Notes: generated from the letters alone by a model not told the origin. A DNA stretch of 64,000 nt from Protoeuglena noctilucae (GCA_958009085.1 OY253689.1:372001-436000); one strand, 5' to 3'; shown: positions 1 through 62,862, counted from the stretch's first letter. Numbers and translations are program-made.

Positions 1-1996
1 AGGGAGATATACACAGAGATAAGCGGAACGAGATACATGGAGCAAAGACGGAGCCCCACACCACGGCGTCCTGCGAAGGGTCAGCACGGAGAGAGGTGGA
101 GAGATGCAACGAGTGGTCAGGGTGTGTGGCGGGGGTGCCACGGATGCACGAATGGGTGCGTGTCAGCAGAGGAACTCGCTTGTAAGAAGAGCGAAGTGCA
201 GGGTGCCCGGTGCATGGTGTATGCGTTCGCTATGCTAACACTATGCTACCCCTCGCCCCAACACCACCCACCAAACCACCCCCCCCAACACACCCCCCTC
301 ACCTCCACCCACGCTCGCCGGTCGCCCGCCCCTGTCGCCCCCCCCCGCACTCTCCCCGCCCCCGTTAGTCTTGCCAGAAACCCACCGTTGAAGGCGTTGC
401 CGCATCCCGTCACGTCCCTCACCACCGTGCGAGGGTAGGCGGGGACATGGATGGGGCGTGGCAGGCCGTGCCATGACGCTGTGGATGTAGAGAGGGGTGA
501 GAACTGAGTGAAGAAGAGTGAGAGAGCAGGCGGGTTGGGGTGGGGTGAGAGAGTGGTGAGAATGCAGGCGTAGGACGTGGATGGGGCGTGGCAGGCCGTG
601 CCATGACGCTGTGGATGTAGAGAGGGGTGAGTGTGGGAAGAGTGAGACAGCAGGCGGGCAGGAAGGGGTGAGAGGGCAAGTGATACTGAGATGGGAGGGA
701 GTACTGAGAAGGACGGCAATCACAATGAGCTGACCCACCCCCACATGCAGCCCCCACGCAATGCAATGCCCGTCACCTGCTGCCCCGTCCGCCCCCCTCC
801 TGAGCACCACGACGGGCCCCCCCCTGCCCCCCAGCTCCACCAGCTGCCCCACCACGTCACGCCACGACACGTCGGTGCCTCCCTCCAGCACTGTCCTTGC
901 TTCGTACTCGTTGGGCGAGAAGACATCGCAGGTGCTTAAGAGGGCGCGGAGGGCGTCGGGGGATGCCTGGGGGGGTCAGGGGGTGAGTGGAGATGGGGCG
1001 GGGGATGCGTATGTTACGCATGGTATCTGTGTGTGTGTTAAGCATGTCAGCTTGATAATTGTTTGACTGGGAACCACCCTCACCAGCCATGCCAGCCTTG
1101 CCAGCTCTCATATGCCCCGTCACTGTCACTACTCTCTCACCGGCTTCTCCGCGCTGGTGTAGGTTTCAATCGACAACGTCGCCCCCGACGCCCGCGTCAT
1201 CTCCCGCAACTCCCGCAGGGCCTCGAGCGGAGGGCTGGTCGGGTGCACGCCCACGTGCACGCACTTGGCCCCGCGCAGCGACGCCGGCAGCGACGCGGGC
1301 GCCGGCAGCAGCATCCGCAGCAGGTCGGGAGTCGGGTCCGTGCGCCACACCTGCGTGCGCTTGCCGTCGCTCTCGAACACCTGCGGCGGCGAGAAGGTAG
1401 ATAATAATCATTGGCGTCGCAGGGAGGCGCAGCGACGCGCCGGGAGGTGCCGGGCGCGGGTGCAGTGCGTGGCAAGATGGAGCGAGATGGCGCATCGATC
1501 GCAGCGGACCTGCCAGGCGCGGGGTGTGCGCGCGGAAGGATTCTTCTGCAGACCGATGAGGGAGCAGCCCAGGGAACGCAGCGCGGCCTCGCAGTCGCGC
1601 GGGAGGTCGTCCCCAACGCCCGCGACTAGCTCCGCCGTGGCGTCACCGCCCGCGGCCACTTGAAACCCGTACTGCGGGGGACGGACTAGTGCACGTCGAC
1701 GCGTCGCGTCGTCGGACCGGCCAGCGGAAGCGAGCGGTCCCGGCGCAGGGAGGGCGACTCACGATGACTTGCGGCCCGCCCCCGCCGAGCATCCCCATCG
1801 CCGTGACGCCGTCCGGCAGCACGATGTCGTCGATAATGAGTGTGAACGTCAGGAGATCGGGTCCGGTGGATGCTGCCGCACGTGATGTGAAGAGCTGGCC
1901 TTTCCGGCCTGTGGGATGCAGGCCCGATGGCCACCCGAACTCGGCACCCCGGGGCGCGAGGGAGCGCAGATGGCGCGCCAAAGAGATGACGCGCAT
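1..1996 (-). CDS. PfkB/ribokinase-family carbohydrate kinase, multi-exon, 3' end runs off the window
   Basis: Spliced exons give LIIDDIVLPDG..MLGGGGPQ, VAGVGDD, TPRAWQ|VFESDGKRTQVW, FSPNEYEA, VVVLRRGADG and the PfkB C-terminal signature DVTGCGNAFNGGF. ATG at 1996 is presumed. Confidence 0.85.
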
Positions 1997-2076
1997 GTCA
2001 CAACGATAGGTCGCCTGATGCAAGCTGCACCCGCGTTCCCCGGGGCACCGCAAAGGCATCCCTGCCCTACGTGAAG

Positions 2077-7905: not shown

Positions 7906-7952
<47 letters not shown>

Positions 7953-9309
7953 ACCCCCTTATCCCCCACCCCAGGCGACGATTTGGGTCAATCTGCCTCA
8001 CTCACTCACCCCTTTCTCACTCACCCCTTTCTCACTCAACCACTCTCACTCTCACTCTCACTCCCACCCCAGGCGACGACATGGGCCGATGCGCCTCGGC
8101 GCTGGCAAGTGCCTTCCGCTCCCTCTACCGCATCCCAGGCATTGATGGCGACTGGTGGGCGCGGCTGCTGCTGAGCATGGGGAGGGGGGACTGCCAGGTG
8201 AGGGGCAGTGGAGGGGCAGGGTGGGGTGGCATGGAGTGGAGTGTGTGTTCGTTACCTCTCACACCCCCACTCTCCCCACCCACACTCCCCACCTTTCACC
8301 AACCCCACTCACCCCATCTCCCCCCCATCCCCCCCCAACTCACCCCACCCCTCCCCAACTCACCCCACCTCCCCCCCCCCACTCACCCCACTCCCCATCC
8401 CACCCACCCCCAGGCATCCAAGCGCCTCTTAATGGCCTGGTCCGAGAGCATCGCCCCCCTCACCACCCCAGACGCCCTCGCACGCGCAATACAGTCCTTT
8501 CAAACCCTCACTGACAACGCCCTAGGCCCTTCTTTGCCCGCCAACGTGCTTATCCGATTGGAGCTATGTGGGGCGGGAGATGAGGCGCTGTCTGGCGAAG
8601 TGCTGGTGGCGATGGTGGCGGGGGCGGCGGAGGGGGGCGGGGTGGCGGGGGTGGCAGAGAGGGTGGTGGGGGCGGTAGAGGGGTGCGGGTCCGTGGAAAT
8701 GCAAAGCGCCACTTCACCCAGCGTCACTCCGCACGGCCAGGGCCGATCTGAGATGCGAGGGGACAGTGGGGCGATGCGGAGTGACGCTGTGGGTGCGTTG
8801 TGGTCGTATCTGCGGATCAAGGCGGGGCTGGTGGAGGATGCGGTGGACCTGGCGGCGGCAATCATGGCGGACGTGGTGATCACGTGAGTAGTTGGATGAG
8901 GGGTGATACGGGTGGGTGAGGGTGTAGTGAACGGTGAGTGGCGGACGTGGTGATCACGTGAGTAGTTGGATGAGGGTGAAGGTGTGAATGAGTGGATAAG
9001 AGTGTAATCAAGTACGAATGGCAGATGTGGTGGTGCAGAAGTGCAGCATGGGGTCCACATTGCACATCACACGCCGCACATCGCACATTGCATCACCCTC
9101 CCCTCCATCTCGATCCAATTGAATCCACCCCCTCTCCCCCACCACCCCCCCCACCCCCCCTCGTAGCCTCGACCCCTCCCCCGATGACATGGAGGAGTTT
9201 CTGGCGATGGGCATCTCCTGCGGTCTGACGGAGGAGTTTGTCGCTGCAGCGGTGAGAAGGGCGGGCTTGGACGGGGGGGATGGGGAGGGAGACTGAAGAG
9301 GTGGCGTGA
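5267..9309 (+). CDS. Multi-exon protein of unknown function
   Basis: Exons join in frame: MALPFSLTDAVDNIIDGVTNFWSWNLK|SCASALG..ALRWR|GVAVPQ..LGPR|EVALYACL..|..IMADVVIT|LDPSPDDMEEFLAMG..EEVA*. No domain recognised. Confidence 0.6.
7905..7952. repeat. (CACCCT)n microsatellite in an intron
   Basis: About 7-8 tandem CACCCT units. Confidence 0.85.
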
Positions 9310-14009: not shown

Positions 14010-17000
14010 ATGGCGAACAAGGACCGGGGCCGCGGCGAGGCGGCCCCGGCTCGCGTGGACGAGGCCGACGGGAGCGCGGATCCGGATTCCCACATCAAAA
14101 GCCTGCCGACGGTCGTCTACGATGCGGCCGAGCGCGAGAGGTGCGTGCGCGGGGGTGCTTGTCCCGATCTCGATCGTCTCCCTCCCCCCGCGCCCGACCG
14201 CGACCGCCTACCCTTCGCGATTCAGGGCCCGTCGATCGGCGGCAGAGTCCGAGGACCTCCAGCGCCCGGTGCTGCAGCGGTACCTCGCCCGATCCCTGCG
14301 TGCGGTCAAGCAGGTGGGCCATGGCCGTGCTTTGCCGCCTCCCGCTACCCGCTTGCCGCCGCGAACCTGCTCGTTTGCCCTTCGCAGAGGTTCCTGGCTC
14401 CGCGCTGGCGCGTCACCGAGGAGCACCACCTCAGCGCCCCCGTGCTCGTCGCCTGGGCTTACGCCTTTTGCTTCCTCTTTCACGACTGGGCGTCCCGCAG
14501 CTGGCTTACTTTCTGGTACCGCTGGACGCTGGGCGCCGTGCGCGACGCCCTCCCGCCCCTGGATGGCGTCCGCGTGCAGCTGCGGGAGAGCACGGGCGAG
14601 ACGGTCGCGCTGCTCGCCCTGGGGGCCCTGGTGGGGCTGGGGCTGGCCAGGTGAGACGAGTAATGGCGGGAGGGGAAATGCGGGGGAGGGTGTGAGGTGG
14701 GAAGAGCGGTGGTTAGGGGGGTTGTTAGGTAAGACGAGCGCGAGCGATTGGATGGTCGTTAGGCGACACGCATGCGATACTGCCCCCCCCCCCCCCCCGC
14801 CCCCCCCCCCCCCCACCCTCCCCTCTACACCTCCCCCCAGGCTCCGTTTCCGCCGGGAGGAGCGCCGCTCCGTCCTCGCCGCTGCCCTGGAGACCCAGCC
14901 GGGGTTCCGATACCTCCGCTCGGTCCTGACGCAGCTGCCAGATTACGTGACATTGGGAGAGGGGGGCGAGACGTGCGAGTGGCTCACCAAGCTCGTCGCG
15001 CAGGTCTTCCCCGCCGTGCAGGTGTGACGGGTGGTGTGCATACTAAGTATGGCTGTCGGTGCTTTGTGTAGCATCATCTCCCAGTTCCTCTCTCATACCC
15101 TTCCCGCCACTCACCCCTCTCCCCCACCCCCAGGCCTCCCTCTCCAGCATCATTTCCCAGTTCCTGGAGCCCGTCCTGGACCATAGCAAGCCCCCCGGCA
15201 TCCGATCGCTGAAGATCATCAAAGTCGACATCGGCACCAAGCCGCTGCAGTTCCTGGACGTACGCACGGTGCCGTTTGGGAACGAGGACGAGAGGCAGTT
15301 CGCCATGGACTTCGGTGAGTTCCTAAGATACATGGTGTTGTATCTTATGTGTGCAATTTGATGTGCAATTTGATGGTTGGGATGGGGCACAGTGTGTGCG
15401 TCGCTGACGTGATGTACCAGTGCTGGTGCAAAAATGTCCTGGGTCATCATAGCGCCTCTAGTGATGACTAATGGTGGGAGCAAAAACGGAAGATTATTTC
15501 AGTATGATCCCTTCTCACCTCATCCCCAGACATGGTGTTCGATTCCGAGCTGGATGCCCAGATGGCTATTCAGCTGGCCCAGATCACCAGCATTGCGCAA
15601 GTCAAGGACTTGAAACTGCAGGCCACGCTGAGGGTCCTCTTCGCGCCGCTGGGGCCCAAGGCGAGGATATTATCGGGGAGGGGTAGTAGAGGGGTGTTGG
15701 GGAGAGGTGTTGGGGTGTTAGAGGGGAGCGTGGGTGGGGGTGGTGGAGTGGATGTGGCTGTGGATGGGCAAGAGTGGTAGCCACTCCTTTCCCCACCCAC
15801 TCCCATACCCCACAGTCACCCACTCACATCCCCACCGACACACTCTCCACCCATGTCAGTTCACACATCAATCCGCACCAGCATCCTCATTGCCATTCCC
15901 CCCTTTCACACAGATCCCCGTCATCCGCGCCCTCTCCATCTCCTTCGCCCGCACCCCCACGGCCAAATTCCAGGTCCGCACCAAGGGCACTCCCCTGCCT
16001 GCCTTTGTGCTCACCTGGATTTCGAATATCATCACGGAAATGGTGCTGGAGTGGTTCGTGTGGCCGGAGCGCGTGGTGGTACCCATCGACACGAGCGGTG
16101 AGGCGATGATTGAGGGAGTTTGTAATTGTGATGGTGGTGGTGCACCCCCAGTCCCCGCCTTCACGCTCGAGCCCCAACCCACTCCACTCACCCCACCCCA
16201 CTCACCTTCCCCCACTCCCCCACATTGCACCCCCCTCACCCCATTTACACCCCACTCCCCCCACAAACACCCCACTCACCTCCCCCCACCCCTCTCAGTC
16301 CCCGCCTTCACGCTCGAGCCGCACCCCCTGGGCGTCATCCTTGTCAAGGTCAAGTCTCTGGAGCTGATGGAGGGGGTGCACGCGAATGCGATATTCTCCA
16401 AGCGACGCCGCGTGAGGCTCAAGATGTGGACGAGGGCGGGGGGGTCGCGGGCGTCGACGATCTCGGCCGTGCCGCACCGCATCAGCGCGATTGGTGAGAT
16501 AAGGGGTGGTGGTGAAGTGGATGGGACGGGTAGCAGTAGAGGTGGGGTGATTGGTGGATATCACTTCTGTCACTCACCCTTCGCTTCCCCTTTTCTCTCC
16601 CCAGGCCAGGCGGGGCAGCATTTCGAATTCGTGGTCAAGGAGCCCGCCAGCGAGCCACTGGTGAGATATGCAGGATTTGAATATACCAGAATGTACTAAC
16701 AAATGACCAGTTATTGACAATCTTGGCCATCAACTTTCCCATCAGTTGTCATAGACGCCCACATTTGTCACGAATGACAAGTTTTATCATAATAATTATT
16801 ACCTTTTATACCCTTTATATACCCTTCTTTCATCCCCCCACCATTACCAGTTCTTCGTCCTCGAGTCCGTGGGACTCCGCGCCTCCCTCCGCGTCATTTC
16901 CGCCATCCCCGTCGCCCGCGCCACGGTGTTGATCCAGGACGTGATTGACGACTGCGGGGGGGCGGCGGATACGGAGGTCAACTACGGGTGAGATATATAT

Positions 17001-18691
17001 GGTAATAACAGTAATGGTGATTAATTGTAGTGGCCTGGAGATGAGGGGGTGGCAGACGTTCAAATCAAATGATGTTCCTACTTTCATCTGTCTATACTTT
17101 TACATATTATTAGTATACTTATTTAATTTTTATTTGCATCATCGTTCTCGTGTTATGCAGGGTTCGTCTGGCTCAGGAGGACTTTCACGTGGCGGGGGGG
17201 AGGGAAGTGGCCATGGCAGAGGTGAGTGGTGGTGTCAATGTACAATTAGTGGGGCTTGTAAAGGGGTGTTATATGTAGTTATGCGTGTGATGATATGCTG
17301 TGTATCTCGGGTCGGTCTGAGGTACAATCGATCCCGACACAAATCGTGCCATCGCCTGTCATGCATAATAGCTCACTTATCGTCATCATTATCCTCCATC
17401 ACCACCCCGGGTGGGCCTTCGTTACAATCGGGTGGAGGATGGCTTGGATTCGGAGGTGGGGGCGGTGTGGGTGCGTGTGGTGACGCTCAGGGGGATACCC
17501 AGGATGGATGTGATGAGCTGGGCGGACCCCTACCTCACCGTCAAGCTGCCGGACGTGGGAGGCAAGTATAAGCGGTGAGGATTCGGGGGATGGGGGGGGA
17601 TGAGTGGGGGGGGGGGGGGGGGGGTGGAGGTGGTTGGTTATCGGTGCGAGAAGGTTGTGTGGTGGGGGCGGCAAGTACAAGCGGTGAGGAATTGGGGGGG
17701 TATGTGGGGGGGTGGTGGGGGTGGTGGGATGGTGGGGCGGTGGTGGGTGATAGGGGTGGTATGGGTGATGGGCAGGGGTCTGCTTGCCGCGCTTGCATCC
17801 TCCCCACAGCACATTCCTCACCCATTCCCGTCCCCCTCCCTTCCCCCCCCCCCCCCGCAGCACGTTCTCCACCCGGTCCAAATCATGCCGCGACGACCGC
17901 ACCCCCGTGTTTGTGTCGGAGCAGACGACCTTCATGGACGTGCAGCTGAGGGAGGAGAGGGACGGGGAGTTCCTGAAAGGCAAGTCACGATTGTGATAAT
18001 TCTAGTTATTATTGGCAATAACGATGTTGATTATGACCCCATTGTTGGACTTCTTCGTTCACCATGTGTTCATTGTGTTATATTTACGCCATGTGTTATA
18101 TTTTACGCCTGTTGTTTATCAGTGCCTCAATAGATATCAATCAATATCCATATCCAAGCCTCCAGGCATATATCTAATAACGTCTCCATCTCTTTACCAG
18201 AACTCCACCGAACCCCCGCAGACGCCACCGGCGACCAGCGCCGCGTCATTATCGAATTGTGGGAGTCTGATTATCTGAAAGACGACTACGTGGGTCGATG
18301 GGAGGTGGCTTTGGAGGAGGTGGTGGGGAGGGGGGGTCACTATGTGGGGACGGTGGTGATTGAGGGCATGTGCCCCAGCAGCCTCATTGTGCCGGACTGC
18401 AGGAAGCCTAAGGTGACTAGGAGTGGGTGGAGATATGAGAGGGGTTGGGATAAGATATGAGGGGGTTTGTGGTGAGAGGGCGGGGTCACTTGTGACCTCA
18501 CACGCAACGTCACTGCCACCCTTAACACCACCCCCACTGCCACCCCCACCACCACCCTCACCTTCTCTCCCCCACAGTGGGAGGCGTGGATGGGCGTGCC
18601 CTACGAGCCCCAGTATTCCCCCGCATCCAATGGCATGAGCAAGTGCCGCGTGGAGATGGATGTGATGGTGTCGTGGCTGGGGTATAACTGA
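14010..18691 (+). CDS. Synaptotagmin/extended-synaptotagmin-like protein (TM + SMP + C2 domains)
   Basis: TM segment, GETCEWLTKLVAQVFP, IIKVDIGTKPLQF, ATLRVLFAPLGPK|IPVIRALSISF, WFVWPERVVVPI, ADPYLTVKL, IELWESDYLKDDYVGR, stop TGA at 18689-18691. Confidence 0.85.
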
Positions 18692-19514: not shown

Positions 19515-22500
19515 TTATTCGAATTCCCCAAACAGGTAGGTGGCTGCGATGAGGACGTAGGTGCCCAGCAAAAGCAGGCCGATGAGCCACTGCGGATAGG
19601 GAAAGGAATGAGGGGATGCGGGGGTGATGATAACGATATATTATCAATATACTATCGATCTGATGAAATGATATGCAGTTTGTGGTTGCCACGCCATGCA
19701 AGCATCCATAATGCGTCAAGACAGTATCACCCGACACCACCCCTACCCTCACCTACCCCACTGCAACACTGCATTATCCCACACCCCCAACCCAACCCCC
19801 TAATCTACACCTCATCCCCACCACTCCCCTTCCACCCACCCTCATTCGCACCCACTCCAACTCCCCACCCCACCCCCCTCACCTGCGACCTGCCATCGGC
19901 CGTGACGGTGTTGGCGAGTATGACGGATAGGAAGAATATGAGCGTGGACAGCGGATCGAGATCCAATGCGAATGGCTTGCCCATGGCCCAGCCCGCCAGC
20001 ACCGCCAATGGGATGGCGAGGATGGCGATCTGGATGGAGGAGCCCAGGGCCACTGGGGGGGGAGGGAGGGAGAATGGGGATATGAGGTGTTGAATATTAA
20101 AATGGTAATATCAGTATCATTATTACAACCAGTAATATTGATGTGGAGGTTCGACCGTCCCACCGCGGACGGGTCCATCTTGTGAGGATAAGCATTTTAT
20201 AATAAATACTAATAATATCAACAATAGCATATCGTCATCTCACCCGACATGGACAGGTCCATCTTGTTCTTTAATGCCACCAGCACCGCAGTGAGATGCT
20301 CGCACGCGTTGCCAATCACAGGCAGCAGCACCACTCCAATGAAGTGGATGTTGAGCCCCGAATCGACGGAGACGTCTCGGATCGAATCGGTGAGGAACTC
20401 GGTGGATAGGGTGATGAGGGCCGTGATGACGGTGAGCACCGCGATGGAGCCGGGGATGCTCAGATGGGGGCGAGGGGGAGGTGGTAGAGAAAGTGAGAGG
20501 GGATAAAGCGAAGAATCAACTGTGATTGATATTTTGCTAGAGATATTTACATTATAAATAATACTCTAAAAATATAGCATTGATAATACTGTTTTAAGTA
20601 TTACTGTTATTATCATTAAAACCCCCCTTTCCTCACCGTGGGCTCCTCGTCGTCGTCCTCGTCGGTGAAGAGGTCGTGGTGGGTGTAGAGGGAGAACACC
20701 AGGTAGGCCGCGTACATTCCCAGCAACACCACGGCAGATACACGGGAAATGTCCAGCACCTCCTTCGTCACGTCCGCCTGCGTCTCGATCCACTTCAGGT
20801 GCGCCTTGTACACTGGGGTTGGTTGGTGGGAGATGGAATAATAATTTAATATAGTGTTAGATGATAGTAATACCAATTTACCGCATCACACCAGTCGCTG
20901 CCGTGACTATAAAGTTGACTATAAACATATACCAATTACCAGCAAACGCGACTTGCTAACAGTACTGCCAACGCTCACACGAGCATGGAGGAGTGACTGA
21001 TTATTAATAACTAACACCAGCCATTGACAAGTAATCAACTGATCACTAAGAGTCTCACCCGAGGGGATGCAGACGCCGATGGCGGCCAGCACGAGCATGG
21101 AGGAGTAGGCCTTGATGGCATTGGTGGAGAAGGTCTGTAAGTGGAACTTGAGACCCCCGATGAGGAAACAAGTCCCGGTCACCAGGAGCAGGTTGGACAG
21201 GATGCTGCCCACGAGCGTCATGGAGACGACCGTGAAGAGGTCCTTGCTGCGAGTGGGTGGAGATGGAAGAATATGTCATGTTACTAATAAGTGCTGTTGG
21301 TTAGTGTTATCGTTGAGTGTGTTATTGGTAAGCATCATGGCGACGACCGTGAAGAGGTCCTTGCTGCATGGACAAGACGGTAATAACAACCATGCATAAG
21401 TTACTGCTAACGACGCGCGTGACTGACGTTACTATTTCATATCGACACTCTCGCCCACATCACACCGATCATCTTTCACCGCAGCGCCGACATGGACAGG
21501 ATGATCTCCACGACATTCCCGAACGTGGCGTTGAGCAGCCCCCCCACGATGTTGCCGAACCTCGATGCCAAATCCTCCGTCACGTCCCCCAGGATCAGCG
21601 CGAGGGGAATAATGGCGAAGAAGTTCAAAGCGAAGTCCCAGGTGTGGCCCCAGCGGAGCATGCGAGACGCCACGGCTGGGGGGGATGGGGGGTGAGGGTG
21701 AGGGTGGGGGAGTGGTGAGGGTGGTAGTGGGGGTGGCAGTCGGGATGGTGTTGAGGGTGGGAGTGGGGGTGGTGTTGAGGGTGGCAGTGGGGATGGTGTT
21801 GAGGGTGGCAGCGAGGGTGGCACTGAGGGTGGCAGTGAGGGCTTGCGCACACAAAAGCATCCCATCGCCCGTGACAACAGCACCTTCCCCCCACCCCCGC
21901 ATTCCACCCTCTCCCAATGTCTCTCACCGAGCGGCAGGCAGAGGAGCAGGAGGGACCAGTAGGTCCCCGTCACCATGCCGTAGATTTTGGCCAGGTCCGT
22001 CGCAAGCGTGAACTTGACGGGAGCACCGGGGATCACGTCCATCGATGGTACGGCCAGCACTGCGATGTTTAGGGAGAAGCATTGATGAGGTCAGGGGGTG
22101 GTATTGGCGGGAAGAGGGAATGGAACGCGAATGTTAGCGCTGGAATTGATATAAGGGCTGTGGTTACTACTAGGCATAACAAGGAGCAAGGCGTGGAGGC
22201 GAGAGAGGGGCGGGGCGGACCAGCGTAGCAGCGTGGCAGGCCTGTCGCGGTCCCTCACCGGGCATGTCGCCGATTTGCGAGCTGGCGGGGGAGTTGCCGA
22301 GGAGTGGAGTTCCGGTCTGCGGAAACGGAAACGGGCGCGAGGGTCGCTGGACCGAGCGGAGCGCGGGAAGGGGCCCGAATGCGCGAGTCGACCTGGAGCG
22401 ACAGGTACGGGCCATCCCCGCCGCAATTGGGCGTTTCGTAGACAAATATTGCGCTTGGGACATGGAGACTGAAAATATAAACGCAAGTGCGCGGTGGGGA

Positions 22501-41124: not shown

Positions 41125-44100
41125 TCACTCAGCATCGCCCTCCGCCCCCCTCTCCCGCATGCGTTGCACGTAAATGCCCACCAGCCGCAGATGCGAGTCG
41201 CTCAGGTGCGGGCGGAGGTGCGTCTCTAAGGCGTCTCCCGCGGCGGACCACAGATCCACGATCGCAAACACCGCGGCTTTGCGCACATCGGCCGACGGAT
41301 GCGACAGTGCGGGGGACAGCCGGGGCGCCAGCCTTGGCGCCCAGCGCAGTGCGTCCGGCTGCGGGAGTCGCGCGCAGACGCGGCCCAAGCACTTGAGCGT
41401 CGCTTGCAGCTGAGAAGGGGCCATGTCCCATTGCGGGGGTGGTGGCGCATCGGCCGTGATGGCGCGAGGGGCGGCGTCGTCTGGCAGGTGGGTCAATATC
41501 ACGTCGAGACAGCGGCCGGGGGGGGCTTGCTTGACTGCGAGGGAAGGGTGGGGGGTGAGCGTGGGTGCGTTGGGGTGCGTGTGAGCGTGAAAGAAAGAAT
41601 TTTCGCATCTCCATATATATGTATGAGGATATTCGAATCTGTGCATGCATCTCACCTATGGCATCCAGTGCCTCCTCGGCGAGCGCACAGACCTCCCGCG
41701 ACCCGTCCCTGGCCGCCCGGAGCATGTCCGGCACGGCCGTTTCAAGCACCGACTCCGCCAGAGGCGCCTGCCAGACACAGAGGTCGCGCATGGCCAATGC
41801 GGCGTGCTCGCGGATGCCGTCGTCGCGGTGGGTGAGGAGGGGGCGGATGAGGGAGAATACTTGGGGAAAGAAGGCCGACCAGGCGGGGGGAGGGGCCGCG
41901 CGGGCCAACTGGGGGGGAGGGGGGGGGGGGGTAGAAGGGGTGGGGGTGGCAGTGGGGGTGAGCGTGAGGGTTGGCAATAGCAATTGGTGGAGATGAGCAG
42001 ACTGGCGCTGGTGCGTGGCGACTCTCCAGACAACGCCGTGTCAGTCTGTGTGATCGCATCGATTGCATGTGTCGGTCATCATTATCAACCCCTCACGACC
42101 CCTCACCTCCGATGCCAAAAACAGCTGGTGCATGACCAGCAGCGTCCGCGACCCCTCCGCGTCCCCCAGCGCCGCCACCATGCGACGGAAGTGCCCCTCC
42201 ACCACATCCGCCGACCCCATGTCCTGTTTGCGCAGTGGCGTGTAGGGCACAGGGCTGTACGGCGTGCCGCCCGCCCCATCCGCGCCCATCGCAGCGCCCG
42301 TGGGGTGTGCACCGGGAGTGTGTAATGCAGATGCAATTGCTGGGCCTGCTCTTGCTGGCATGGCGGGGGATGGGGAGGGGGAGGGCGATCGCCTCGCTGC
42401 CCCCGCCGCCCCCGCATTGCCCATTCCCATCCTCGCTGCTGGGGAGGGCGACGGTGATTTGCCCGCCTTATTCGCAACCCCCGCACCTCCCACCACCCCC
42501 GCACCCCGCACTGTGCCCGTCGTATACTCAAGCGTGCTTTCGCTCGTCTGCCGTTGCGCCGCTCCCGCCCCCACCCCACCCTTGCCCCCCACCTCTCCCT
42601 CCCCCTCCCCATCCCCCACTCCTTTCATCTCCCTCTCTCTGTCAGACTCGTCCCCCTCCCCCTCCCCCACACGCACCGCATGTGATCGCAGCCCATCCCC
42701 CTGCATCTCCACGTCCCCATCGCTCGCCTCCGCATACCCCTGCCACGCGTACGGCCCCTCCCGCACCTCCCGCACCGCCCCCGCACCCGCACCCCCCTCG
42801 TCCAAAGCTGGCGAAGCGCCCCGCCCACCGCTCCACCCCTCACCCCACGCCACCCCCGCCCCAGCTCCCACCCCCGCAGCCGCCGTCTGTTGTTGGTATC
42901 CCGGCAGCGCGGGCGCGAGGTGGCGGTGGAGGTTGGCCCGCTCATCGGGCGTGGCGTGGTGTGTGGCGTAGGCGGCGAGGGCCGACGGGTCAACGGCCTC
43001 GTGAATGCGGCACAGCAGAGAGGCAGCTGACGATCTAAGGGGGCGGTCGCGATCGGCCAACAACGCAGCGGCGCGCTGCACCACGGCGCGGAGGAGCGCG
43101 GGCGTCAGGCGGGCGTCTGACGCCGACGCCGCCAGAAACTGCGCCAGCCAGTCGAGTGCCGCGATGCGCGCGGCGGATCCCCGGGACTTGTCGAGGGCCA
43201 GCGCCGCGCCGGCGATGAGGAGGTCGGGGGGGAACGCGGCGGCGGCTGCGGCGAGGCAGCGAGCGGCGGCGGGGGCGTGGGGCTCGCGGTTGGTGGCGAT
43301 GTGGCGGAGGAGATCTGGGAGCAGGCGCTCTACCTGAGTGGGAGAGAGAGAATGGAAGAATGGTAATGACTTGAATGTGTGGAAGTAGATGGGGCGAGAG
43401 GGGGGGCGCTTAATTTGAACAGGGAGAAGGGAGTGACGTGAATGACTGGGTGCAGGGTGCATGCGATGGTGAGTCGAGAAGCGGAAGCTGGCTCAATACA
43501 CGAACATATATATCCGAACCATCCTGCTTAACACCCCCCCGCCCCTCTCACGCCTGTTCGCTCACTTCCCCCCCCCCCCCATACTCACCTGCATGTCCAT
43601 GCCCACCCCCAGCCTCATCGCCCCCATCATCACCCCTATCACCCCTCAACGCCCCTAATACTAACTCACTCCCCCCCATCCCTTACCTGCGTGTCCATGC
43701 CCACCCCCAGCCTCATTGCCGCCGTGCATGCCTCAATCGCAGCCAGGCTGACCATGCGGTGCGGATCCTGCAATGCGTCGATCAACCACGTCCCCACCCG
43801 ATCCCCACTCATCGCCATCTCAGATGCAGCGCCGGGGTGCGACAGGCTGCGCGCCAGTCTCCCCAACAACTCCACACGCTCCTCCCAACGCTTGCCGGGG
43901 CCGGGAGCGCGCGACAGCTCCTCTACTACCCCGCGAGGGTGGGGGGGTGGGGCGGGTGATGATGACACAGGTGCGGGTGCGGGTGCGGATACGGGTGTGG
44001 CTGCCCATGCAGGCGGGGGTGCGTGGGCGGGTGCGGAGGCGGGAGTGCGTGCGGGAGAGGGGGCGTCTGCCCAGTTCGCACCCGCGCCCCTTGCGCTGGC

Positions 44101-48565: not shown

Positions 48566-48765
48566 NNNNNNNNNNNNNNNNNNNNNNNNNNNNNNNNNNN
48601 NNNNNNNNNNNNNNNNNNNNNNNNNNNNNNNNNNNNNNNNNNNNNNNNNNNNNNNNNNNNNNNNNNNNNNNNNNNNNNNNNNNNNNNNNNNNNNNNNNNN
48701 NNNNNNNNNNNNNNNNNNNNNNNNNNNNNNNNNNNNNNNNNNNNNNNNNNNNNNNNNNNNNNNNN
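48566..48765. other. Assembly gap (200 N)
   Basis: Run of N. Confidence 1.
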
Positions 48766-48963: not shown

Positions 48964-50863
48964 TGGGGGCGGGGAGGGCGCGACGGCTCGCGAGGTGCTG
49001 CGTCACCGGGGCGTGGAGCGTGTGATTATGGTGGACATCGACGAGGTGGTGTGCCGCTTCTGCGCACAGCACCTCCCCAAGAACACCGCGGCGTTCAAGG
49101 ACCCCAGGTGGGGTGTTGGTGGGAAGGGGGTGTCGTAATGTTGTAACGTTAAGTGAAGATTGCATGTGAGCGTGCGGGGGGGGGGGGGGTTGATGCTGAG
49201 TGGGGCTTGTCTCTCTGTGCTGTACACGACGTGCTTGTTTACCACCCAAGTAGTGATGCCACATCACTACTTGCGCCCCCACATCAACCTCCCCCTCCCA
49301 TACCGCCCCCCCCCCCCCCCCCCCCACCCAGGCTCACCCTCATCCACAACGACGCCCGTGCCGAGCTCGAGCGCGTCCCCGACGGCTCCCTTGACGTGGT
49401 CATCGGTGACCTGGCGGACCCCGTGTTCGGTGGCCCCTGCTACCAGCTCTACACGAAAGATTTCTATGAGAATGTCGTGAGGCGCAAGCTGGCGCCCGGG
49501 GGCATCTTCGTCACGCAGTCGGGGCCGTGCGGGGCCGAGTCGTGCACGGAGGTGTTCACGGCCATCCACAACACGCTCAGGTGAGCTCAGGTAACAGGGC
49601 ACAGGACTGTTACACCATCACAGGGTGATACCATCGTCAGCATGGGATCATAGAGCGCAGAGGGCGCATGGCATTGATGTGTTCCTCATAGAGAGCCGGC
49701 TGGGACTCTCTGGCAACCTAGTCCCGTGGCATTGAAGCTCCGTTCAACCCCTAGATTACATCACGGGGGCTTCGGCCGGTAAGCCCCAGTGATGTAATCT
49801 AGGGGTTGTCTATTGGAGCTTTACTGCCAACGGTGCTAGGTTGCCACAGTCCTAGCCGTCGCTCTACGAGGAAGGCGTCAATGCTTAGCGCCCACTGCGC
49901 TCTATGATCCCATGCTTGCTGACGCTGGGATTACCCTCGACCGCTGACGCAGGGCTAATTCTGCCCCCTTTCCCAACACCACGCCATGCCATGCCATGTT
50001 ATCTGCCTCTTCCTCACAACCCCCTCCCCCCCTGCACCCATCCCACACCACGTTCCTCACTCTCACAACCCCCTCCCACCCCACCCCACACACCCACACC
50101 CCCTGCACCCATGCCACACCATGTTCCTCCCTCTCACGCCCCCTCCCAACCCCATCCCCCCACACCCACCCCCCCCTGCACCCCCGTGCCATGCTTTGTT
50201 CTCGTGTGCTTTGTTCTCACAAGCCCCTCCCACCCCCACACCCTCCACCCAACCCCCCCACCCCCTCCCCTCACATCCCCCAGGCAAGTCTTCCCCCGCG
50301 TTCTCACCTACAAGGTCCCGATCCCATCCTTTGTCGACTGCTGGGGATTCAACGTGGCGCTGTCAGACCCAGAGGGCACGCCCGCGCTGGCGGCTGAGGA
50401 ACTGGACCGTCGGATTGAAAAGCGCATCGAGGGGGAGCTGGAGTATTTGGATGGGGCGTACATCCTGGGGATGCAGGTGAGAGTTGGGGTGGGGGTGGGG
50501 GTAGTGAGGATGGGGGTAGTGGGGAAGATGGTGCGAGGTGTACATCCTGGGGATGCAGGCGAGGGGGGTGGAGGGGGGTGGGGGCAGTGAGGGTGGAGTG
50601 ATGGGCATGCTCTAAACCCTCACCATCCGCGTCAGCCCCTCTCTCTCATGCACCCTTATCATCCACATCAGTCCCTTCCATCCACGCCTCACATCCACGC
50701 CTCCCATCCCCACCCCTCCCAGTGCACCCCTCCCATCCACACCCCTCCCACAATCACGCAGACGCTCCCCAAGTGCATCCGGCGCCGCATGGCAGAGGAG
50801 ACGCACGTCTTCACCGAGGACGCGCCCAGGTACCTCAAGTCGGGGGCAGGGCTCAAGGCCTGA
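48964..50863 (+). CDS. ACL5: Thermospermine synthase (ACL5-like aminopropyltransferase); 5' part missing in the gap
   Basis: GGGEGATAREVLRH, MVDIDEVVC, GDLADPVFGGPCYQLYT, GIFVTQSGP, VFTAIHNTLR|QVF, PSFVDCWG. These match ACL5-type rather than spermidine-synthase (GGGDG..DSSDP) motifs. Confidence 0.88.
49622..49937 (+). ncRNA. Long intronic fold-back, candidate miRNA precursor
   Basis: Arms 49622-49772 and 49781-49937 are imperfect inverted repeats with an 8-nt loop; 8 of 9 transition mismatches are G:U-compatible on the sense strand. Confidence 0.6.
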
Positions 50864-54779: not shown

Positions 54780-55569
54780 TTCACACATGAGGAACATGGC
54801 ATGGAAATCGCAAGCAATATAGACCCAGATTTTGTCATCGTGGACCAGCAACACCCTGTCGTGGTTTCCCTCGCTGCCGGGGCAGGGGACGCTGCCGGAG
54901 GGTGTGGGCGGCTGTCAGGCTGCGTGTGCCCGTCCCCGTGTCGAGCTCCAATCCCGCTTTTTTTTTTTTTTTCCGTCCCCCCGGGCTGAACCATTACGCC
55001 TCGAGTCTTGGGGGGGGGGGAGGGCGTCCCCGCGGCTGCGTCAGGGCGACCGTGCGGGCCCCTGCACGCACGTCGGCTGTGCCTTCCCCAGCCTGAGGGA
55101 CCCGCCATTACGCCTCGAGTCTTGGGGGGGGGTTGCGACGGGGGACGAACGTCGGGGCAGAGCTGGCAGAAATGGGTCGAAGGGCTCAGGAAGTGGCGAG
55201 AGACGTGGCGCCTGTGGGGTGGAACGCCGGGGATGCCGAGGCAACACCGGCAGTGGCGCAGACCGGACCAGGCGCCACAGGGTCAGAGAGCGGCGTGGCT
55301 GCGACGAGGCGGGGAGAGTGGGAGCGCAAGCGGGCCGGAGTGCCTGCCTTTGGGAGTCTGTCGAGGAGGCCCTGCAGGAGAGCAACGGCTGACGAGGGGT
55401 GCTGGTGCCGGACACGGCGGCGCTGGCAGGGCGACCCCTCGCACGACAAACAGCAGGGCAGCGGGCTTCTGGGGGCGGGCGCGATGGCGGCGCGGCAAGA
55501 GCGAACGGCAGCGGCGAGAGTAACACAAGGGGCAGCGAGTGGTGTGCGGGTGCATGGGCTGGGCGACAC

Positions 55570-55714: not shown

Positions 55715-57236
55715 TCATGCCCCCTTCCTCTCCGTGCGTCGGATCTCCACCCCCGGGTGCGCGGCTGCATACGCGTCCTCCATCCCCACGTATCGGTCCC
55801 GCTGCCTCGCAAACGTCTCCTGTGACAGCATACAGGGACAGCAGGCGCGTGACGAAACGGGGATGTTGATAACAAGGATAGGCATCTCTCTTTGCGCAGT
55901 GTCCCTTGCAAGAACACCCCAGTGCCTCCATTCCCCCTCGCCTGCGTCACCCTGTTCCCACTCCCACTCCCCCTCTCTCTCACCTGCGTCACCCTGTCCA
56001 CCAGCAGCACCCCCTGCAGGTGGTCGTACTCGTGCTGGAAGATGCGCGCCTCCCACCCCCGCACGTCGAGCACGAAGGGGCGGCCCGTGAGGTCCTGCGC
56101 CCGCACCTTGATGCTCGCGTGGCGGGACACGTCGCCCAGGATGAGGCCCTGGGGAGAGACGGAGTGGAGGGGAATTGAGGGGTGAATGGGGGAACACTGA
56201 TAGACGCAGCCAAGGCGAGGGGTTGAGTGGGGGAGCACTGAGTGGGGATGGGCAGCGAGTGGAGGGCTGTTGAGGGGTGAGTGGAGTAATACAGATAGGC
56301 GACTGAAAGCGGATCAGGCGTTGGTGGCACAGCCCACCGCACCGTCACCTATGCATCTCTAACTGACAGGCACCCCTCCTCGCCCATCTCCATCCGCACC
56401 GTCACCTGTGCGTCCTTGAACGACAGGCACCCCTCCTCGCCCATCTCCATCCGCTTGCTCCCCGACACGACCCTCGGGTTCACCAGCACCACCTCGCTGT
56501 TGCGCCGCTCCCTCAGACCCGTGGGGTTGAACACCATCAGTCGCACGTTCACGCCCACCTGGGGCGCGGCCAGGCCCACGCCGTCGTCCATATACATCAC
56601 CTCGAGCATCTCAGACGCCAGACGCGCCAGCTGCAGGGGGACATGGGTGTGCATGGGTGGGGGACTGCTGCAGTCCTGGTCCCTATGATAGTGCCATGGG
56701 CGTGGATTGGATGTGCTATCCGCATGTGTCACCTTGGCGTCAAACACCCCGATCTTGGCATTCTGCTGGCGCAGGCGCGGGTCGGGGTACCTCAGGATGC
56801 TGTCGAGCGTCAGCGGGCCCTCCCAATCTGTGTGGCACAACACTTGCGGGAAGCGTTGTACCAGGCCGGCAGGATTGTACGCAGAGAGACCGACCGCCGC
56901 TTGCTGTGCGCCTCTCGCCTGGTATCTCCGTCACGGTGGGTGCGTCGTCTTTCTCCTCCTCTTCCTCCCGCTTGACGGATGCGAGCTCTTTCATCAGGAA
57001 GCCCCTGCGCACGGAGCGGCCGCGGGGTCGACGCGGAAGCCAGTGCAACTGGAGCAACGGACGATATTTGTAGATCAGACTCACCTGCCAGCCTCGACCG
57101 GGCGGCCCCTGCGCTGGGCGCGGCACGCGCGGGCCGCGAACAGCCGCGCGCCCATCCGCAGCGGGCCGGCGACGTCGCGGCACCGATGGCCGGCGTGCAG
57201 CGCACACAGTATTGTCCCTTGCAACGCGTGCGACAT
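55715..57236 (-). CDS. PDF1B: Peptide deformylase (PDF1B-like, organellar)
   Basis: Transit-like N-terminus, ILRYPDPRLR, motif 1 GVGLAAPQVG, motif 2 EGCLS, motif 3 QHEYDHLQG. Confidence 0.93.
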
Positions 57237-57745: not shown

Positions 57746-60700
57746 ATGGCGGCCACATCTGGGGCCGCGCGGCCGGTCCCAGAGATTCGCAAGCTGGATG
57801 AGTCGGTGGTCAATCGCATTGCGGCCGGAGAGGTGCGGAGGGCGTCGCGGGGATGGCGTTCCCTCGCGCAGCTGCAGCAGACCCCTCGGGGCGCTTGCGG
57901 GGCCTCATCCATCGCGTTCGCGTGCCCTGCACCTCTATTATATAACCATCCACTTTCTCGCGTACCTTTCGTCCCCGAATGGTCTCTCGATTCGCCTCGC
58001 ACATCGCCGCGACGCTGCGCAGGTCATCCAGCGCCCCGCGAACGCCATGAAGGAGATGCTGGAGAATTCCTTGGATGCCGGCGCGACGCAAGTGACGATT
58101 ACGGTGAAGGACGGGGGCCTGAAGCTCCTGCAGGTCCAGGACAATGGCCACGGCATCCGCACCGACGACCTCCCCCTCCTTTGCGAGAGATTCGCCACCT
58201 CCAAGCTGCGGGCCTTCGAGGACCTCGCGACGGTGGGGACGCTTGGGTTCAGGCGAGCAGCGCGGGCCTGCGTGTCGCAGAGGAGATGAGTGGGGAGGTG
58301 GATGACAGTCCCTGTGTCCGACCCTCACACTTGCCAGCCCTCACCTCACCAGCCCTTGCCTCTCAGCCCTCACCTCAACACACATGCATAGTTGGCACAA
58401 TTGTGCGTTCTCTCAGAGGCGAGGCCCTCGCATCCATCTCCTTCGTGGCCCACCTCACCGTCACCACCATGACGCACGGGGCGGCCCATGGCGTGCGCGC
58501 CACCTACACCGATGGGAGGCTCAACGGCAGCCCCGTGCCATGCGCGTCAGGTGACGATGGTGGTGATGGTGATGGTGCCAGCGAACGCCCTGTTTGCGCT
58601 TCCCCGCATCGCAACTTTGGACAACACGCTCTCCCTCTCTCTCATGTGCACCCTTTCCCTCCCTCTCTCTTTCTGCAGTGCCAGGCACCACCATGTTAGT
58701 CGAGGACCTCTTCTACAACATGCCCACGCGCCGCAAAGGCCTGCAGTCCCCGGGTCAGGAGATGGCACGGCTGCTGGACGTGGCGGGCAAGTACGCCGTG
58801 TACAAGGCAGGGGTCGCCATCACCTGCAAACGGCGAGGGGGGGGGGGGGGGGGGGGATGAGGGGCGTGTGCGATGATGACTATATGACTACATACGGAGT
58901 TGTGGCGTCGTCCATGCATAACGCGAGGCACGATTGTTCAAACACAATCACTGTCACTGTCACTGTCACTATCTCCTCATGCACCCGATGCAACCCACTG
59001 TCACCTACTCTCCCCCCGCCCCTTTCCCCTCCAGTCAAGGCGCCCCCAAGCCCGACCTGTCCACCCAGCCCGGTGCCTCGCGCCGCGCCACCCTCCGCGC
59101 CGTGTACGGTGCGGCAGTGGCGAGTGATCTGCTGGATTTGAACACCGAGTGCGGGGAGTGGGGGGAGGGGGAAGAGGGGCTGCCATCGGAGCTGTGCGTG
59201 AGGGCGGAGGGGCTGGTGTCGGGTGAGGGGTGGGGGGGGGGGGTGGGTGTGGATGTGGGGTGGGGAAGGCGGGTGAGGGGGGATGTGGAGAAGGGGTGTC
59301 AGTGAGAGTAGGGCCTAGACGCCGCATTTGTCTGCCACCCAACCCCCACTGCCACACTCACCTCCCACTGTTTAACCACCCCCCTATCAGGCCTCTCCTA
59401 CCACGGCAAGCGCTCCATGCTTGTCCTTTTCCTCAACGGCCGCCCCGTCGACTGCTCCCCCCTCAAGCGCGCCATCGAGGGGGTCTACGGTTCGATTCTC
59501 CCCAAGAACGCCAAGCCGTTCGCCTTTTTGGACGTGCGCGTGCCCCCTCGCGCCGTCGACGTCAACGTCCACCCCACCAAGCAAGAGGTGAGAGTGGTTG
59601 AGAGGGGATGGGGACATGGGGAGTGGAGTGGATGTGCACCCAAGCAAGCAAGGGGTGAGAGAGGGTGACATGGGGAGAGGGGGAGGGTGGTGCGTGAAGT
59701 GAGCCTAGTCAGTACTATCTACCCTTACGCATGCACCATCCCACTTCCTCACCCAAACACTCACCAGTACACCCCCCCACCTTCTCACCAATGACCTTCT
59801 CCCCCCCACAGGTCGCCTTTTTGTTCCAAGACGCCCTCGTCTCCCACATCGCCACCGCCATCGAACAACTCCTATCGAATGCCAATGCCACCCACCACAT
59901 CCCCACCGCCAGAGTCGCACCCACCGCCATCGCCTATGCTGGTCAGGATGGGAGGGGTGGCACGCAGGGGGGTGGCGGCGGGGGCAAGCGGGGGAGGGGC
60001 GGTGCGAGTGGGGATGAGGGAGATGAGAGGGAGGGGGAGGGGGGGAGGAGGGGGTCGGGGGCTGGGGTATCGGGTGAGATGGTTGGAAACACGGGGGGGG
60101 GGTTTGCGGTGCGGTGGGATTGGCGTGTGCGGTGTTAAGTGGCATGGACAAAGCAACGAATAAATGTAATGCTATTGCTCGTAGCTGTTTACTAGTATCT
60201 TAGCGCATGTCGACTGTCATCCGACGCTCGCCACTGCCACCCATCGCTACATGCAGCACACATCGCCATTACTCTCACCGCCACCGCTCCCACCGCTCCC
60301 CCTCCCTGGTGACATGCCACGTCATGTCACCCCCACATCCCAGTCAACTCAGTCCCCCCCTGTGTCTGTTGTCCCATAGGCAAAGCCCCCTATCGTCCCA
60401 ACAAGCTGGTGCGCGTGGATGCCCGTTCTCAGCCATTGGAGGCCTTCCTCCACCACGCGCCGGATGAGGGGGCCGTGAGGGCGGCGGGGGAGGGGGGGTG
60501 AGTGGGGGGGGGGGAGTGAGTGAGGGAGGGGGGTGAGTGAGGGTGGAGAGATGGGGTTGAGTGGGTGGGGATGGAGGGGGAGGCATGGGGGTGATTGCGG
60601 GGTGGGAAGAGGGGGTGAGCTGGGGGTGGGGATGGGTTAGGTATAGCGGTGAGCCTGTGTCAGTCCCTGCCACATTGTTACTTTGCCCCATTGTTACACA

Positions 60701-62862
60701 GCCATGCTGCCGCACTGCCCACTCACAATCCCCTTGCCTCTCCCCTTCCCCCCCAGCACTGTGCGTCGCCCCCGCCGTGGCATGACAGCTGGGGGCATGG
60801 GATTGGCCACGTTGTTAACAACAACAACAGATGTTATGGGGATAACAGAGGGGGCCACACAGGGGCGGGGTGATGGCATGGAGGGGGGGCAGATGCAGGG
60901 CGGTGGGGTGGGGGGTGGTGCGGATGGCGGTGGGGGCGATGAGAGGGCGGGCGGTGGTGGGGATGCAAGCGGTGCGGGTGCGGGTGCGGGTGCGGGTGCG
61001 GGTGGCAATGCGGGTGCGGGTGCGGCTGCATTGGGTGAGCTGGCAGCCATCCGTCGTTCGGTGCGTCAGCGGCGGGGGGCGGGGGGGGAATCGACGCAGC
61101 TGACGAGTGTCAGAGAGCTGCTGAGGGATGCGGGTGAGGGATGGGTGGGGATGAGGGATGCGGGTGAGGGGTGGACAGCAATCACCATTGCCACTGCCAT
61201 CACCGCTACCGTCGCCCCCACAGCCACTCCCTCACCCTCCCACCCTCCCCCCCTCTCACCCTCATCCTCACCCTCACCCACTCTCAACCCCCTCCCATCC
61301 CTTCAACCCCAGAGCACCCCCCCCACCCGGAGCTGTCCGCCGTCTTTGCGCAATGCACGCTGGTGGGCCTCATTGATCCCGTCGCGGCATTGGCACAGCA
61401 CGGCACGCGGCTGCTGGTGCTGGACCTGTCGAGCCTCACCCGGGACCTTTTCTTCCAGCTGGCGCTGCGGGGATTCGAACGCCACCCGCGCGTGAGGCTG
61501 GGGGAGGGGGTGGGCGTGGACGAGGCGGTCGAGATGGCGCTGGTGAGAGTTTGTGAATTGTGGATGAGGAGTAACGTGGAATGGGATGCAGTGTGGGTGT
61601 GAGGGATGGGTGGAGATGGGAGGGGTGATGGTGCTGGTGAGAGTGGGTGTGGACGGGGGTGGTCGAGATGGCGCTGGTGAGAGGAGTGGATGGGGTGTGA
61701 GGGGTGTTGGTGAGGTGTTGCGTGCAGTGTTGCGAACGTGTTGCTCATTGCACTTCACGCGCCAGCACTCACCCACTCTCACTCACTCACTCCCACTCAC
61801 CCACACCCACACCCACACCCAAACTCACTCACCCACACCCACCCAACCCGTCCCCCTTCCCCCCCAGTCCCTCCAGCACTCTCAGGGCTCCTGGTCCCCC
61901 CCCTCCCCCACCGCCACCCCCGCCGCCCTCGCCGCCCTCGCCCGGCAGCTGCTCACCCGTAAGCGCGACCTGCTGGGATCGTGCTTCGGCATAGACATCA
62001 CCGATTGCGGCAGGATCGTCTCCCTGCCGTTGCTGCTCGATCGATACCACCCGGATTTGGACAGGCTGCCGGGGCTGGTGTTGGATCTGGCGACGAGGGT
62101 GGAGTGGGGGGAGAAGGCGTGTTTTCGGTGAGGGTTATGTGGGGGGTGGGGGTGTTTCTGGGTGTTGTTGATGTGAGTGGGTAAGAGTGGTGGAGTGGTG
62201 GAGTGGTGGAGTGGGGGGAGGAGAAGGCGTGTTTCCGGTGAGGGGGGGGTGGGTGGGGTGTTGTGTGGGGTGCATTTAAATGATGGAGTAGTGTGTTGGG
62301 GATGTTAAGGAATGCTGTTGATATGATTGGTTGACGTGGTTGCGAGGGTGGAGTGGTAAGATGGTGGGCATCAATCAAGCACGCATCGCCCAGCATCGTG
62401 CTGTGCTGTCCGTGTCAGCAGCACGATCGCGGAGGCGCTGGCGGACTTCTACCGCCTGCAGCCGCCGATGGGGGAGGAGGGGGGTGGGGGAGAGGGGGGT
62501 GATGATAAGGGTCAACATGATAAGGGACATGATGAGGGACAGCAAGGCCAGGGAGTGAATGAGGGACACGAGAAGGGGCGTGAGGGCGTGGCGTTGCCTG
62601 GTTGGCGGAGGGACGGGCGGCGGGAGTGGGCGGTGCGGCACGTGGTGATGCCGGGTGAGTGGATGAGATGGGCAGTGAGGGAGTGGATGGTTCACATATG
62701 TAGCAGCAGTACATATGTGATATCATTCATCATTCCAACACCTCTCTGCCCCTTGCAGCCCTCCGCTCTCTGTTCAAGCCCCCCGCACATCGTGGCAGGG
62801 ACGGCACTGTGGTGGAGGTGACGAGGCTGGAGAAGCTGTACCAGATATTCGAGAGGTGCTGA
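57746..62862 (+). CDS. MLH1: DNA mismatch repair protein MLH1
   Basis: IRKLDESVVNRIAAGE|VIQRPANAMKEMLENSLDAG, QDNGHGI, ERFATSKL, TLGFR|GEALASIS, VEDLFYN, VDVNVHPTKQE|V, LTSVREL, and the C-terminal LYQIFERC*. Confidence 0.97.

Follow-up and report, generated by a model that had tools for sequence, protein, structure and literature searches.

In a 64-kilobase (kb) stretch of Protoeuglena noctilucae DNA (GCA_958009085.1 OY253689.1:372001-436000, below called the window), about one intron in six bears, close to its splice junction, a second copy of its own exon end together with the splice site. We call the copy that spans the junction the exon-side copy and the one inside the intron the echo; donor echoes repeat the 5′ junction of an intron and acceptor echoes the 3′ junction. 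Splicing joins the exon-side copy wherever RNA could be compared, and the echo leaves with the intron as an intact decoy. With slightly more confidence than doubt, we interpret the echoes as minisatellite-like local tandem duplications, which occur throughout these introns and are kept where splicing removes the surplus copy.

All counts given here are based on this one window, which has a GC fraction of 0.53–0.72 and many introns. Exons were placed with a hidden-Markov gene model that covers both strands and for which 12 RNA-confirmed introns served as seeds; the model yielded 18 gene blocks and 111 introns with a median length of 191 nucleotides (nt). Against the RNA joints, the model reproduced 13 of 15 exactly, including three minus-strand joints outside the seed set; its errors were the intron 26884-26977, which was missed, and the intron 35787-36012, which was split around an echo. 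The public runs that match the window are labelled marine metagenome or metatranscriptome, and four further runs come from one organism. RNA evidence consisted of contigs assembled from three metatranscriptome runs, in which rare forms are lost, and RNA contigs and independent DNA contigs were compared over 24349-44348 (20 kb), where 15 of 35 RNA joints were listed.

Recurrence of exon ends in their own introns

A preliminary description of the window had listed 25 pairs of sites, 20 of them donor pairs (24508 being counted twice) and 5 acceptor pairs, in which an exon end and its splice site appeared to be recopied in the adjacent intron. We re-aligned all 25, and the copies were confirmed near the claimed offsets. 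The alignment scores lay between 14 and 56, and 18 of the 25 were at least 19, compared with a 95th percentile of 12 and a 99th percentile of 19 for 400 random places. The predicted junction fell within the exon-side copy in 23 pairs, the two exceptions being 20251/20166 and the third copy of 24508, for which the best diagonal lay elsewhere. Donor, acceptor and strand assignments agreed with the gene model, and the offsets of 30–147 nt lie within the limit of about 200 nt that had usually been noted. Echoes were present in 11 of the 18 predicted gene blocks. Moreover, an unbiased diagonal scan (60 hits), made independently of the earlier list, recovered most of the same pairs.

Recurrence was then counted over all predicted junctions. 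The last 20 exon bases were found again in their own intron, with at least 16 of 20 matches, for 14 of 108 donors, compared with 25 of 11880 combinations with other introns (Fisher p = 1e-19). This own-intron recurrence is so far above the other-intron comparison that chance is excluded. For acceptors, the first 20 exon bases recurred in 4 of 108 own introns and in 4 of 11880 combinations with other introns. Control probes from exon interiors gave 1/98 and 0/98, and wrong-side exon ends gave 0/108 twice.

We also slid a 20-mer probe across the junctions and sought a nearby copy at each position; the probes overlap, so these counts are not independent. Deep in exons, nearby copies were found for only 2 of 1177 probe positions (0.17%; 0–1% along the profile). 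On the donor side the profile climbs from about −35 and peaks at 13–16% for probes that end at 0 to +10, and it then settles on an intron-interior plateau of 103/2056 probe positions (5.0%), compared with 0.1–0.9% for the other-intron null. The donor junction (14/108, 13%) is thus about threefold above the intron interior (p = 0.001, uncorrected), and the acceptor junction (4/107, 3.7–4.8%) is not above an intron interior of 5–8%, the exon interior on that side being at 0–2%. Nearby duplication is therefore a general property of these introns that is missing from exon interiors, and only the donor junction stands out.

Splice-site use and state of the copies

RNA contigs from two or three runs join at the exon-side copy at donors 25702, 26085, 35787, 36581, 36995 and 38666 and at acceptor 25247, so that the exon-side, most upstream donor was used in six of six RNA-checked donor echoes in 24349-44348. 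No splicing at an echo site, and hence no sign of the recursive or alternative splicing that had been suggested, was seen among the 15 of 35 RNA joints listed, in contigs, which drop rare forms. The echo of the exon end 35756-35786 had been miscalled by the gene model as an in-frame 33-nt exon (35860-35892), and RNA contigs from three runs skip it.

In an independent run of marine metagenome DNA (X5), contigs span 24349-26154, 33443-37009 and 38070-38805, differing from the window at 0 positions and showing 0 gaps, and between them they hold both copies of seven pairs. Because these seven pairs are intact in independent DNA, the echoes are not assembly artefacts. An artefact of assembly or haplotypes, in which alleles were collapsed or mis-joined, is an explanation that we practically discount, since the RNA contigs of three runs also excise the echoes cleanly and the sole assembly gap (48566-48765, 200 N) is not near any echo. 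As for copy-number differences, comparison of the window with a single metagenome DNA run gave no indels, in contigs, which drop rare variants. The protein of a relative (P0241) continues from the same exon end as at the 26085 locus into GT GAG, without an in-frame repeat, which suggests that the intron is old; by this comparison the 26085 echo looks young. Use of the 26085 echo would insert 15 codons in frame. A metagenome scan for DNA of relatives gave 17 loci, all of them distant, with a best identity of 49% (60% only over 20-residue fragments).

The echoes recur at periods of 30–147 nt, and the duplicated length is 15–61 nt. The exon-derived part measures 8–49 nt, and 12–34 nt in 17 of 18 events, with 2–31 nt of intron in common. 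Several are plain tandem units, at 26072 (41/45 nt), 56337 (61 nt over a 57-nt period), 61122 (23/30) and 443 (59+22 of 130), and three-copy arrays are present at 24511, 36568 and 61516. When the remainder of the unit was compared in 14 donor events, it was significantly similar in 5, borderline (0.06–0.13) in 4 and not similar in 5. In the 56337 unit the ∼8 differences all lie within 16 nt (56349-56364) just upstream of the echo donor, where they create in-frame stops; this patch may have arisen through changes by which a long exon copy was disarmed, or it may be a mosaic left by conversion. Coordinates of all echoes are collected in Table 1.

The suggestion that decoy splice sites are left behind holds well, because GT or GC is preserved at every one of the 17 scored echo donors, and in 9 of them the 9-mer is identical to that of the true donor. 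Their scores range from 7.1 to 14.0 bits; the median of true donors is 10.4, a value reached by only 25 of 2379 intronic GT/GC sites. Use of the echo donor is predicted to bring in a stop codon in 11 of the 17 cases, a frameshift without a stop in 3 and an open in-frame insert in 3 (26085, 55983 and 61134). Donor 9-mers differ between the copies at 12/153 positions (7.8%) and the exon-derived part at 30/356 (8.4%). The two rates are alike, so nothing points to additional constraint on the echo donors, which change at the pace expected of neutral sequence. Half of the differences (15/30) are synonymous in the exon frame, compared with 25% under random change (p = 0.003). Hence the excess of synonymous differences noticed earlier is present, but it fits a neutral echo facing a constrained exon (40% expected, p = 0.18), and no selection on the echo is needed. 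The pairs TAT/TAC, GCG/GCA, GAC/GAT, TTT/TTC and GTC/GTG named at that time were found again, while CAT/CAC was not found among the donor echoes.

Echo-bearing introns are longer than the rest, with a median of 257 versus 179 nt (23 versus 87 introns, p = 2e-6), a gap of about one period; longer introns also give more room for finding a copy. All echo donors lie at least 122 nt from the acceptor. The process had been proposed to build and to extend introns. The greater length agrees with extension, but creation is not seen: we tried intron birth from a duplicated exonic AGGT as a candidate, and the best matches in its two comparisons were 12 and 11 of 20, so that 0 of 111 introns reached 14/20.

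Table 1. Echoes of exon–intron junctions in the window. Positions are counted from the first base of the window; percentages are identities between the two copies.
Feature	Span	Strand	Exon-side copy	Junction	Echo	Period (nt)	Match	Remarks
Acceptor echo	443..658	-	443-501	exon end 478	573-631	130	59 nt, 98%	exon-side copy lies over acceptor; further 22 nt (513-534 / 637-658) make a near-complete tandem unit
Older acceptor echo	7965..8079	+	8063-8079	exon start 8073	7965-7981	98	17 nt identical	
Donor echo	8865..8976	+	8865-8902	intron start 8884	8939-8976	74	38 nt, 100%	visible in raw sequence
Acceptor echo	16149..16327	+	16296-16327	exon start 16299	16149-16180	147	32 nt, 94%	echo AG kept
Donor echo	17557..17698	+	17557-17589	intron start 17575	17666-17698	109	33 nt, 88%	unit remainder similar, p = 0.007
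Weak donor-side echo	20167..20267	-	20251-20267	beside donor 20243	20167-20183	84	17 nt, 94%	echo without GT
Acceptor echo	21214..21367	-	21214-21250	exon end 21246	21331-21367	117	37 nt, 95%	echo AG kept
Donor echo	24154..24229	+	24154-24168	intron start 24162	24215-24229	61	15 nt identical	16/20 exonic
Three-copy array	24511..24715	+	24511-24554	intron start 24524	24584-24627	73	89%	first unit over junction; third copy ∼24666-24715; unit remainder p = 0.000
Older acceptor echo	25175..25279	+	25247-25279	exon start 25247, RNA-confirmed	25175-25207	72	33 nt, 82%	echo AG lost
Donor echo	25668..25798	+	25668-25704	intron start 25702, RNA-confirmed	25762-25798	94	37 nt, 95%	34 nt exonic
Near-complete tandem unit	26072..26157	+	26072-26112	intron start 26085, RNA-confirmed	26117-26157		95%	unit of 45 nt
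Donor echo	35756..35897	+	35756-35791	intron start 35787, RNA-confirmed	35862-35897	106	36 nt, 86%	
Three copies	36568..36725	+	36568-36586	intron start 36581, RNA-confirmed	36707-36725		19 nt identical	middle copy 36617-36638
Donor echo	36970..37095	+	36970-37006	intron start 36995, RNA-confirmed	37059-37095	89	37 nt, 97%	
Donor echo	38604..38684	-	38663-38684	donor 38666, RNA-confirmed	38604-38625	59	22 nt, 95%	
Donor echo	43587..43720	-	43685-43720	donor 43686	43587-43622	98	36 nt, 94%	34 nt exonic
Donor echo	50458..50563	+	50458-50481	intron start 50477	50540-50563	82	24 nt, 96%	echo donor (50559) GC, original GT
Donor echo	55937..55997	-	55979-55997	donor 55983	55937-55955	42	19 nt, 95%	echo donor (55941) GC, original GT
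Complete tandem unit	56337..56454	-		donor 56405	echo donor 56348		33+12 nt identical	unit of 57 nt, 49 exonic; peptide-deformylase-like gene, EGCLS codons
Older donor echo	59570..59668	+	59570-59601	intron start 59588	59637-59668	67	32 nt, 84%	
Short tandem unit	61122..61174	+	61122-61144	intron start 61134	61152-61174		96%	unit of 30 nt
Three-copy array	61516..61689	+	61527-61549	intron start 61543	61661-61683	134	23 nt identical	middle copy ∼61610-61649
Donor echo	62106..62244	+	62106-62134	intron start 62128	62216-62244	110	29 nt, 93%	

Possible origins of the echoes

According to the explanation that we favour, small local and mostly head-to-tail duplications, with units of ∼30–150 nt and sometimes three-copy arrays, would arise all along these repeat-rich introns, likely through replication slippage or unequal exchange. 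A duplication that falls wholly within an exon would alter the protein and would presumably be lost by selection, and one that falls wholly within an intron would be harmless and would decay quickly, both copies being free to change. A duplication across a junction would do no damage while splicing continues at the exon-side site, which may amount to a rule that the first donor wins, and the surplus copy would leave with the intron. Selection on the exon copy should keep the exon half of such an echo recognisable for longer. Later, indels in G-rich tracts would blur the copies, and patchy gene conversion between them may partly refresh them. The outcome would be a longer intron with an intact, unused decoy splice site. 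The full-unit tandems at 26072, 56337, 61122, 24511 and 443 are the youngest or clearest cases, and they support the tandem-duplication reading.

Several observations weigh against this explanation. A randomly placed unit predicts a uniform exonic share of the period, but the share was below 0.5 in 17 of 18 events (mean 0.30, Kolmogorov–Smirnov p = 1.6e-5). Among 14 events, 9 showed no significant similarity in the intronic remainder, though the exon-derived part is 80–100% identical, and in 8 the ungapped similarity stops no more than 9 nt past the GT. Similarity can also be mosaic: the 8865 pair matches at 38/38 positions and then not at all, and the 56337 unit has 0 differences in 45 nt and ∼8 in 16 nt; thus an added process such as conversion is needed. 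Donor echoes outnumber acceptor echoes by 14 to 4 (p = 0.024), a bias that selection against decoy acceptors may explain. The donor excess itself falls to p = 0.05–0.19 after allowing for a 1.6–2-fold longer detectability of exon-anchored copies, a factor that was reasoned and not measured; under the same factor the acceptor junction is below expectation (p = 0.02), a deficit that may reflect selection against upstream decoy acceptors. Finally, there is one window with few RNA-checked junctions, as RNA backs 7 of the 24 echo junctions and the others come from the gene model. The process had earlier been described as junction-focused, which is not borne out in that form: copies also lie inside introns, the acceptor junction shows no excess and the donor excess shrinks after correction for decay.

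Several of these points are what would be expected if copying were seeded at the donor, which we regard as a possible but rather unlikely origin. A broken or stalled 3′ end would anneal to G/GTGAG(G) by microhomology, copy 12–35 nt of exon end and rejoin downstream. Such templated insertion or template switching, for instance during polymerase-theta end joining or staggered-break fill-in, would leave short patches and unrelated spacer. The threefold donor peak, the short exonic part, the early end of similarity with non-significant tails, the sharp edges of the 8865 pair and the surplus of donors all fit, and further instances of G/GTGAG(G) lie in the 5′ part of introns, which is rich in G (48% over the first fifth). 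However, acceptor echoes and intron-internal repeats occur at similar density, which makes a donor seed unnecessary, at least five events are full tandem units, and several echoes share 11–31 nt of intron past the motif. Intronic GGTGAG, moreover, numbers 35 versus 23.5 ± 4.6 in shuffles, a surplus about equal to the number of echoes. It is doubtful that donor-biased copying on G/GTGAG plants fresh decoy 5′ sites and is the main engine of intron growth and turnover here, with conversion keeping the decoys matched. Selection on the echoes themselves, as extra U1 sites that define short GC-rich introns, as back-up donors or as regulated donors linked to nonsense-mediated decay, would explain why every scored decoy keeps GT or GC at a strength that few intronic sites share, why use of the echo would bring a stop or frameshift in 14 of 17 cases and why half of the differences are synonymous. 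We consider it improbable, because the decoy 9-mers change like their flank, the synonymous share fits neutrality, no echo-starting joint appears among the listed RNA joints and the relative has no in-frame echo at 26085. Still less do we expect the spacer and echo to be the footprint of an introner-like mobile element with a target-site duplication at the junction. The repeat–spacer–repeat layout resembles such a duplication, and spacers have a mean local score of 11.5 versus 8.8 ± 0.7 for control intron starts, but in this window the spacers align best over low-complexity G/T runs and share no element, duplicated lengths of 15–61 nt are unlike a transposase-type duplication, and several plain tandem units have no spacer.

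Related systems, other features and implications

The closest parallel to local tandem duplication over a junction is the 37-base-pair minisatellite in IVS7 of the human F7 gene (Borensztajn et al. 2006, PMC1557585). Its first unit spans the exon–intron boundary, identical pseudo-donors downstream are silent and the most upstream site is chosen. Likewise, head-to-tail units lie over the boundary at 26072, 56337, 61122 and 24511, and on the acceptor side at 443, and identical echo 9-mers occur here together with use of the upstream site in all RNA-checked cases. F7, however, is one locus, and the introns of its genome are long; in the window about one intron in six is affected within 64 kb, mostly with two copies, and acceptor versions occur too. 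Tandem duplication is an established source of introns and of duplicated splice sites (PMC3265369, PMC2891723, PMC3443670, PMC4974935). In the Rogers model (PMC3265369, of 2011; review PMC3443670; Lehmann et al. 2010, PMC2891723), a new intron arises from a tandem duplication of exonic AGGT. The echoes share with this model a small intragenic tandem duplication whose surplus is spliced out with the protein unchanged. However, an intron born in this way ends with a copy of the upstream exon end and begins with a copy of the downstream exon start, whereas here existing introns are enlarged. Gao and Lynch 2009, as cited (PMC4974935, PMC3443670), found a genome-wide high rate of partial-gene duplications, some across exon–intron boundaries; as cited, these are mostly larger segments (whole exons or introns), unlike the sub-exon echoes. 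The pairs 8865/8939 and 61527/61661 resemble intron gains with direct repeats around unrelated filler, but in those gains short repeats flank the whole new intron, and here the repeats, of 15–61 nt, sit together at one end of an old intron. Introners (PMC9860276) are alike in that they concern marine algae with fast-changing introns and inserted sequence that is spliced out; in contrast to them, no repeated element family was found among the spacers. The echoes had been thought not to be described as a genome-wide system. Single-gene precedents such as F7 IVS7 exist, and no genome-wide description of junction echoes was found in full-text literature searches, whose coverage of subscription journals is incomplete.

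The introns of the window have a marked polarity: in the 111 predicted introns, G makes up 48% and C 10% of the first fifth, compared with 12% G and 50% C in the last. The idea that G-rich intron starts are decayed donor echoes was tried and is unsupported, because the GGTGAG surplus given above about equals the echoes themselves. When 34 introns were folded, one predicted pair in two linked the first 40% with the last 40%. Hiding of decoys by pairing of the G-rich 5′ arm with the C-rich 3′ arm was rejected for these introns, as z = −0.53 against gradient-keeping shuffles indicates a composition effect only. CTCACC occurs 81 times in introns versus 30.3 ± 5.3 in shuffles, and CTCAC 134 versus 70.7. 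Both motifs, which are probably branch-site-like, cluster in the last three fifths of the introns, in many places as arrays (e.g. 7900-7960, 8256-8410 and 16158-16290), and CTCACC happens to be the reverse complement of the donor motif GGTGAG. The GC-AG intron 25359-25602 is confirmed by RNA contigs and is one of 19 predicted with a GC donor (19/111), compared with 56% reported in Emiliania huxleyi (PMC4028052).

Other repeats in the window include three head-to-tail copies of ∼280 nt at 53288-53995 (71–92% alike), which have no predicted gene and are unrelated to junctions, a 100-nt (TATCTA)n microsatellite within an intron (24249-24348) and an intergenic 28-nt perfect direct repeat (54991-55018 / 55105-55132, 114 nt apart). 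Exon translations from the gene model resemble ordinary genes, which from reading them we take to include a PP2C phosphatase, a D-lactate-dehydrogenase-like protein, an EngA GTPase, two P450s, a peptide deformylase and MLH1. Exon queries for the saccharopine-dehydrogenase family returned only bacterial relatives (≤54% identity), and an exon query for the ADP/ATP-carrier family returned one 100% match, with named algae at 72–78%. The P450-like paralogues (31410-34235 and 37812-40348, minus strand) lie on either side of the saccharopine-dehydrogenase-like gene. Their intron after a 157-nt exon measures 94 nt in one (32151-32244) and 280 nt in the other (38387-38666), and the longer one is echo-bearing; by the gene model only, the first paralogue has three introns without a counterpart in the second.

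The echoes are a frequent and well-preserved form of a process known from single genes, and they do not show a new way of making introns. For annotation, gene finders will be misled by decoy donors that equal the true ones in strength, as the false 33-nt exon illustrates. If donor-biased copying were true, the genome would hold thousands of natural duplicated-donor experiments, and decoys might perhaps help short GC-rich introns to attract U1. Should the window be representative, some one in six introns of P. noctilucae would carry an intact donor duplicate 30–150 nt downstream with the exon-side site still chosen. This would provide a large natural set of duplicated splice sites for the study of 5′ splice-site choice in introns that are short and GC-rich, and it would directly show small local duplications to be a major contributor to changes in intron length in this organism.

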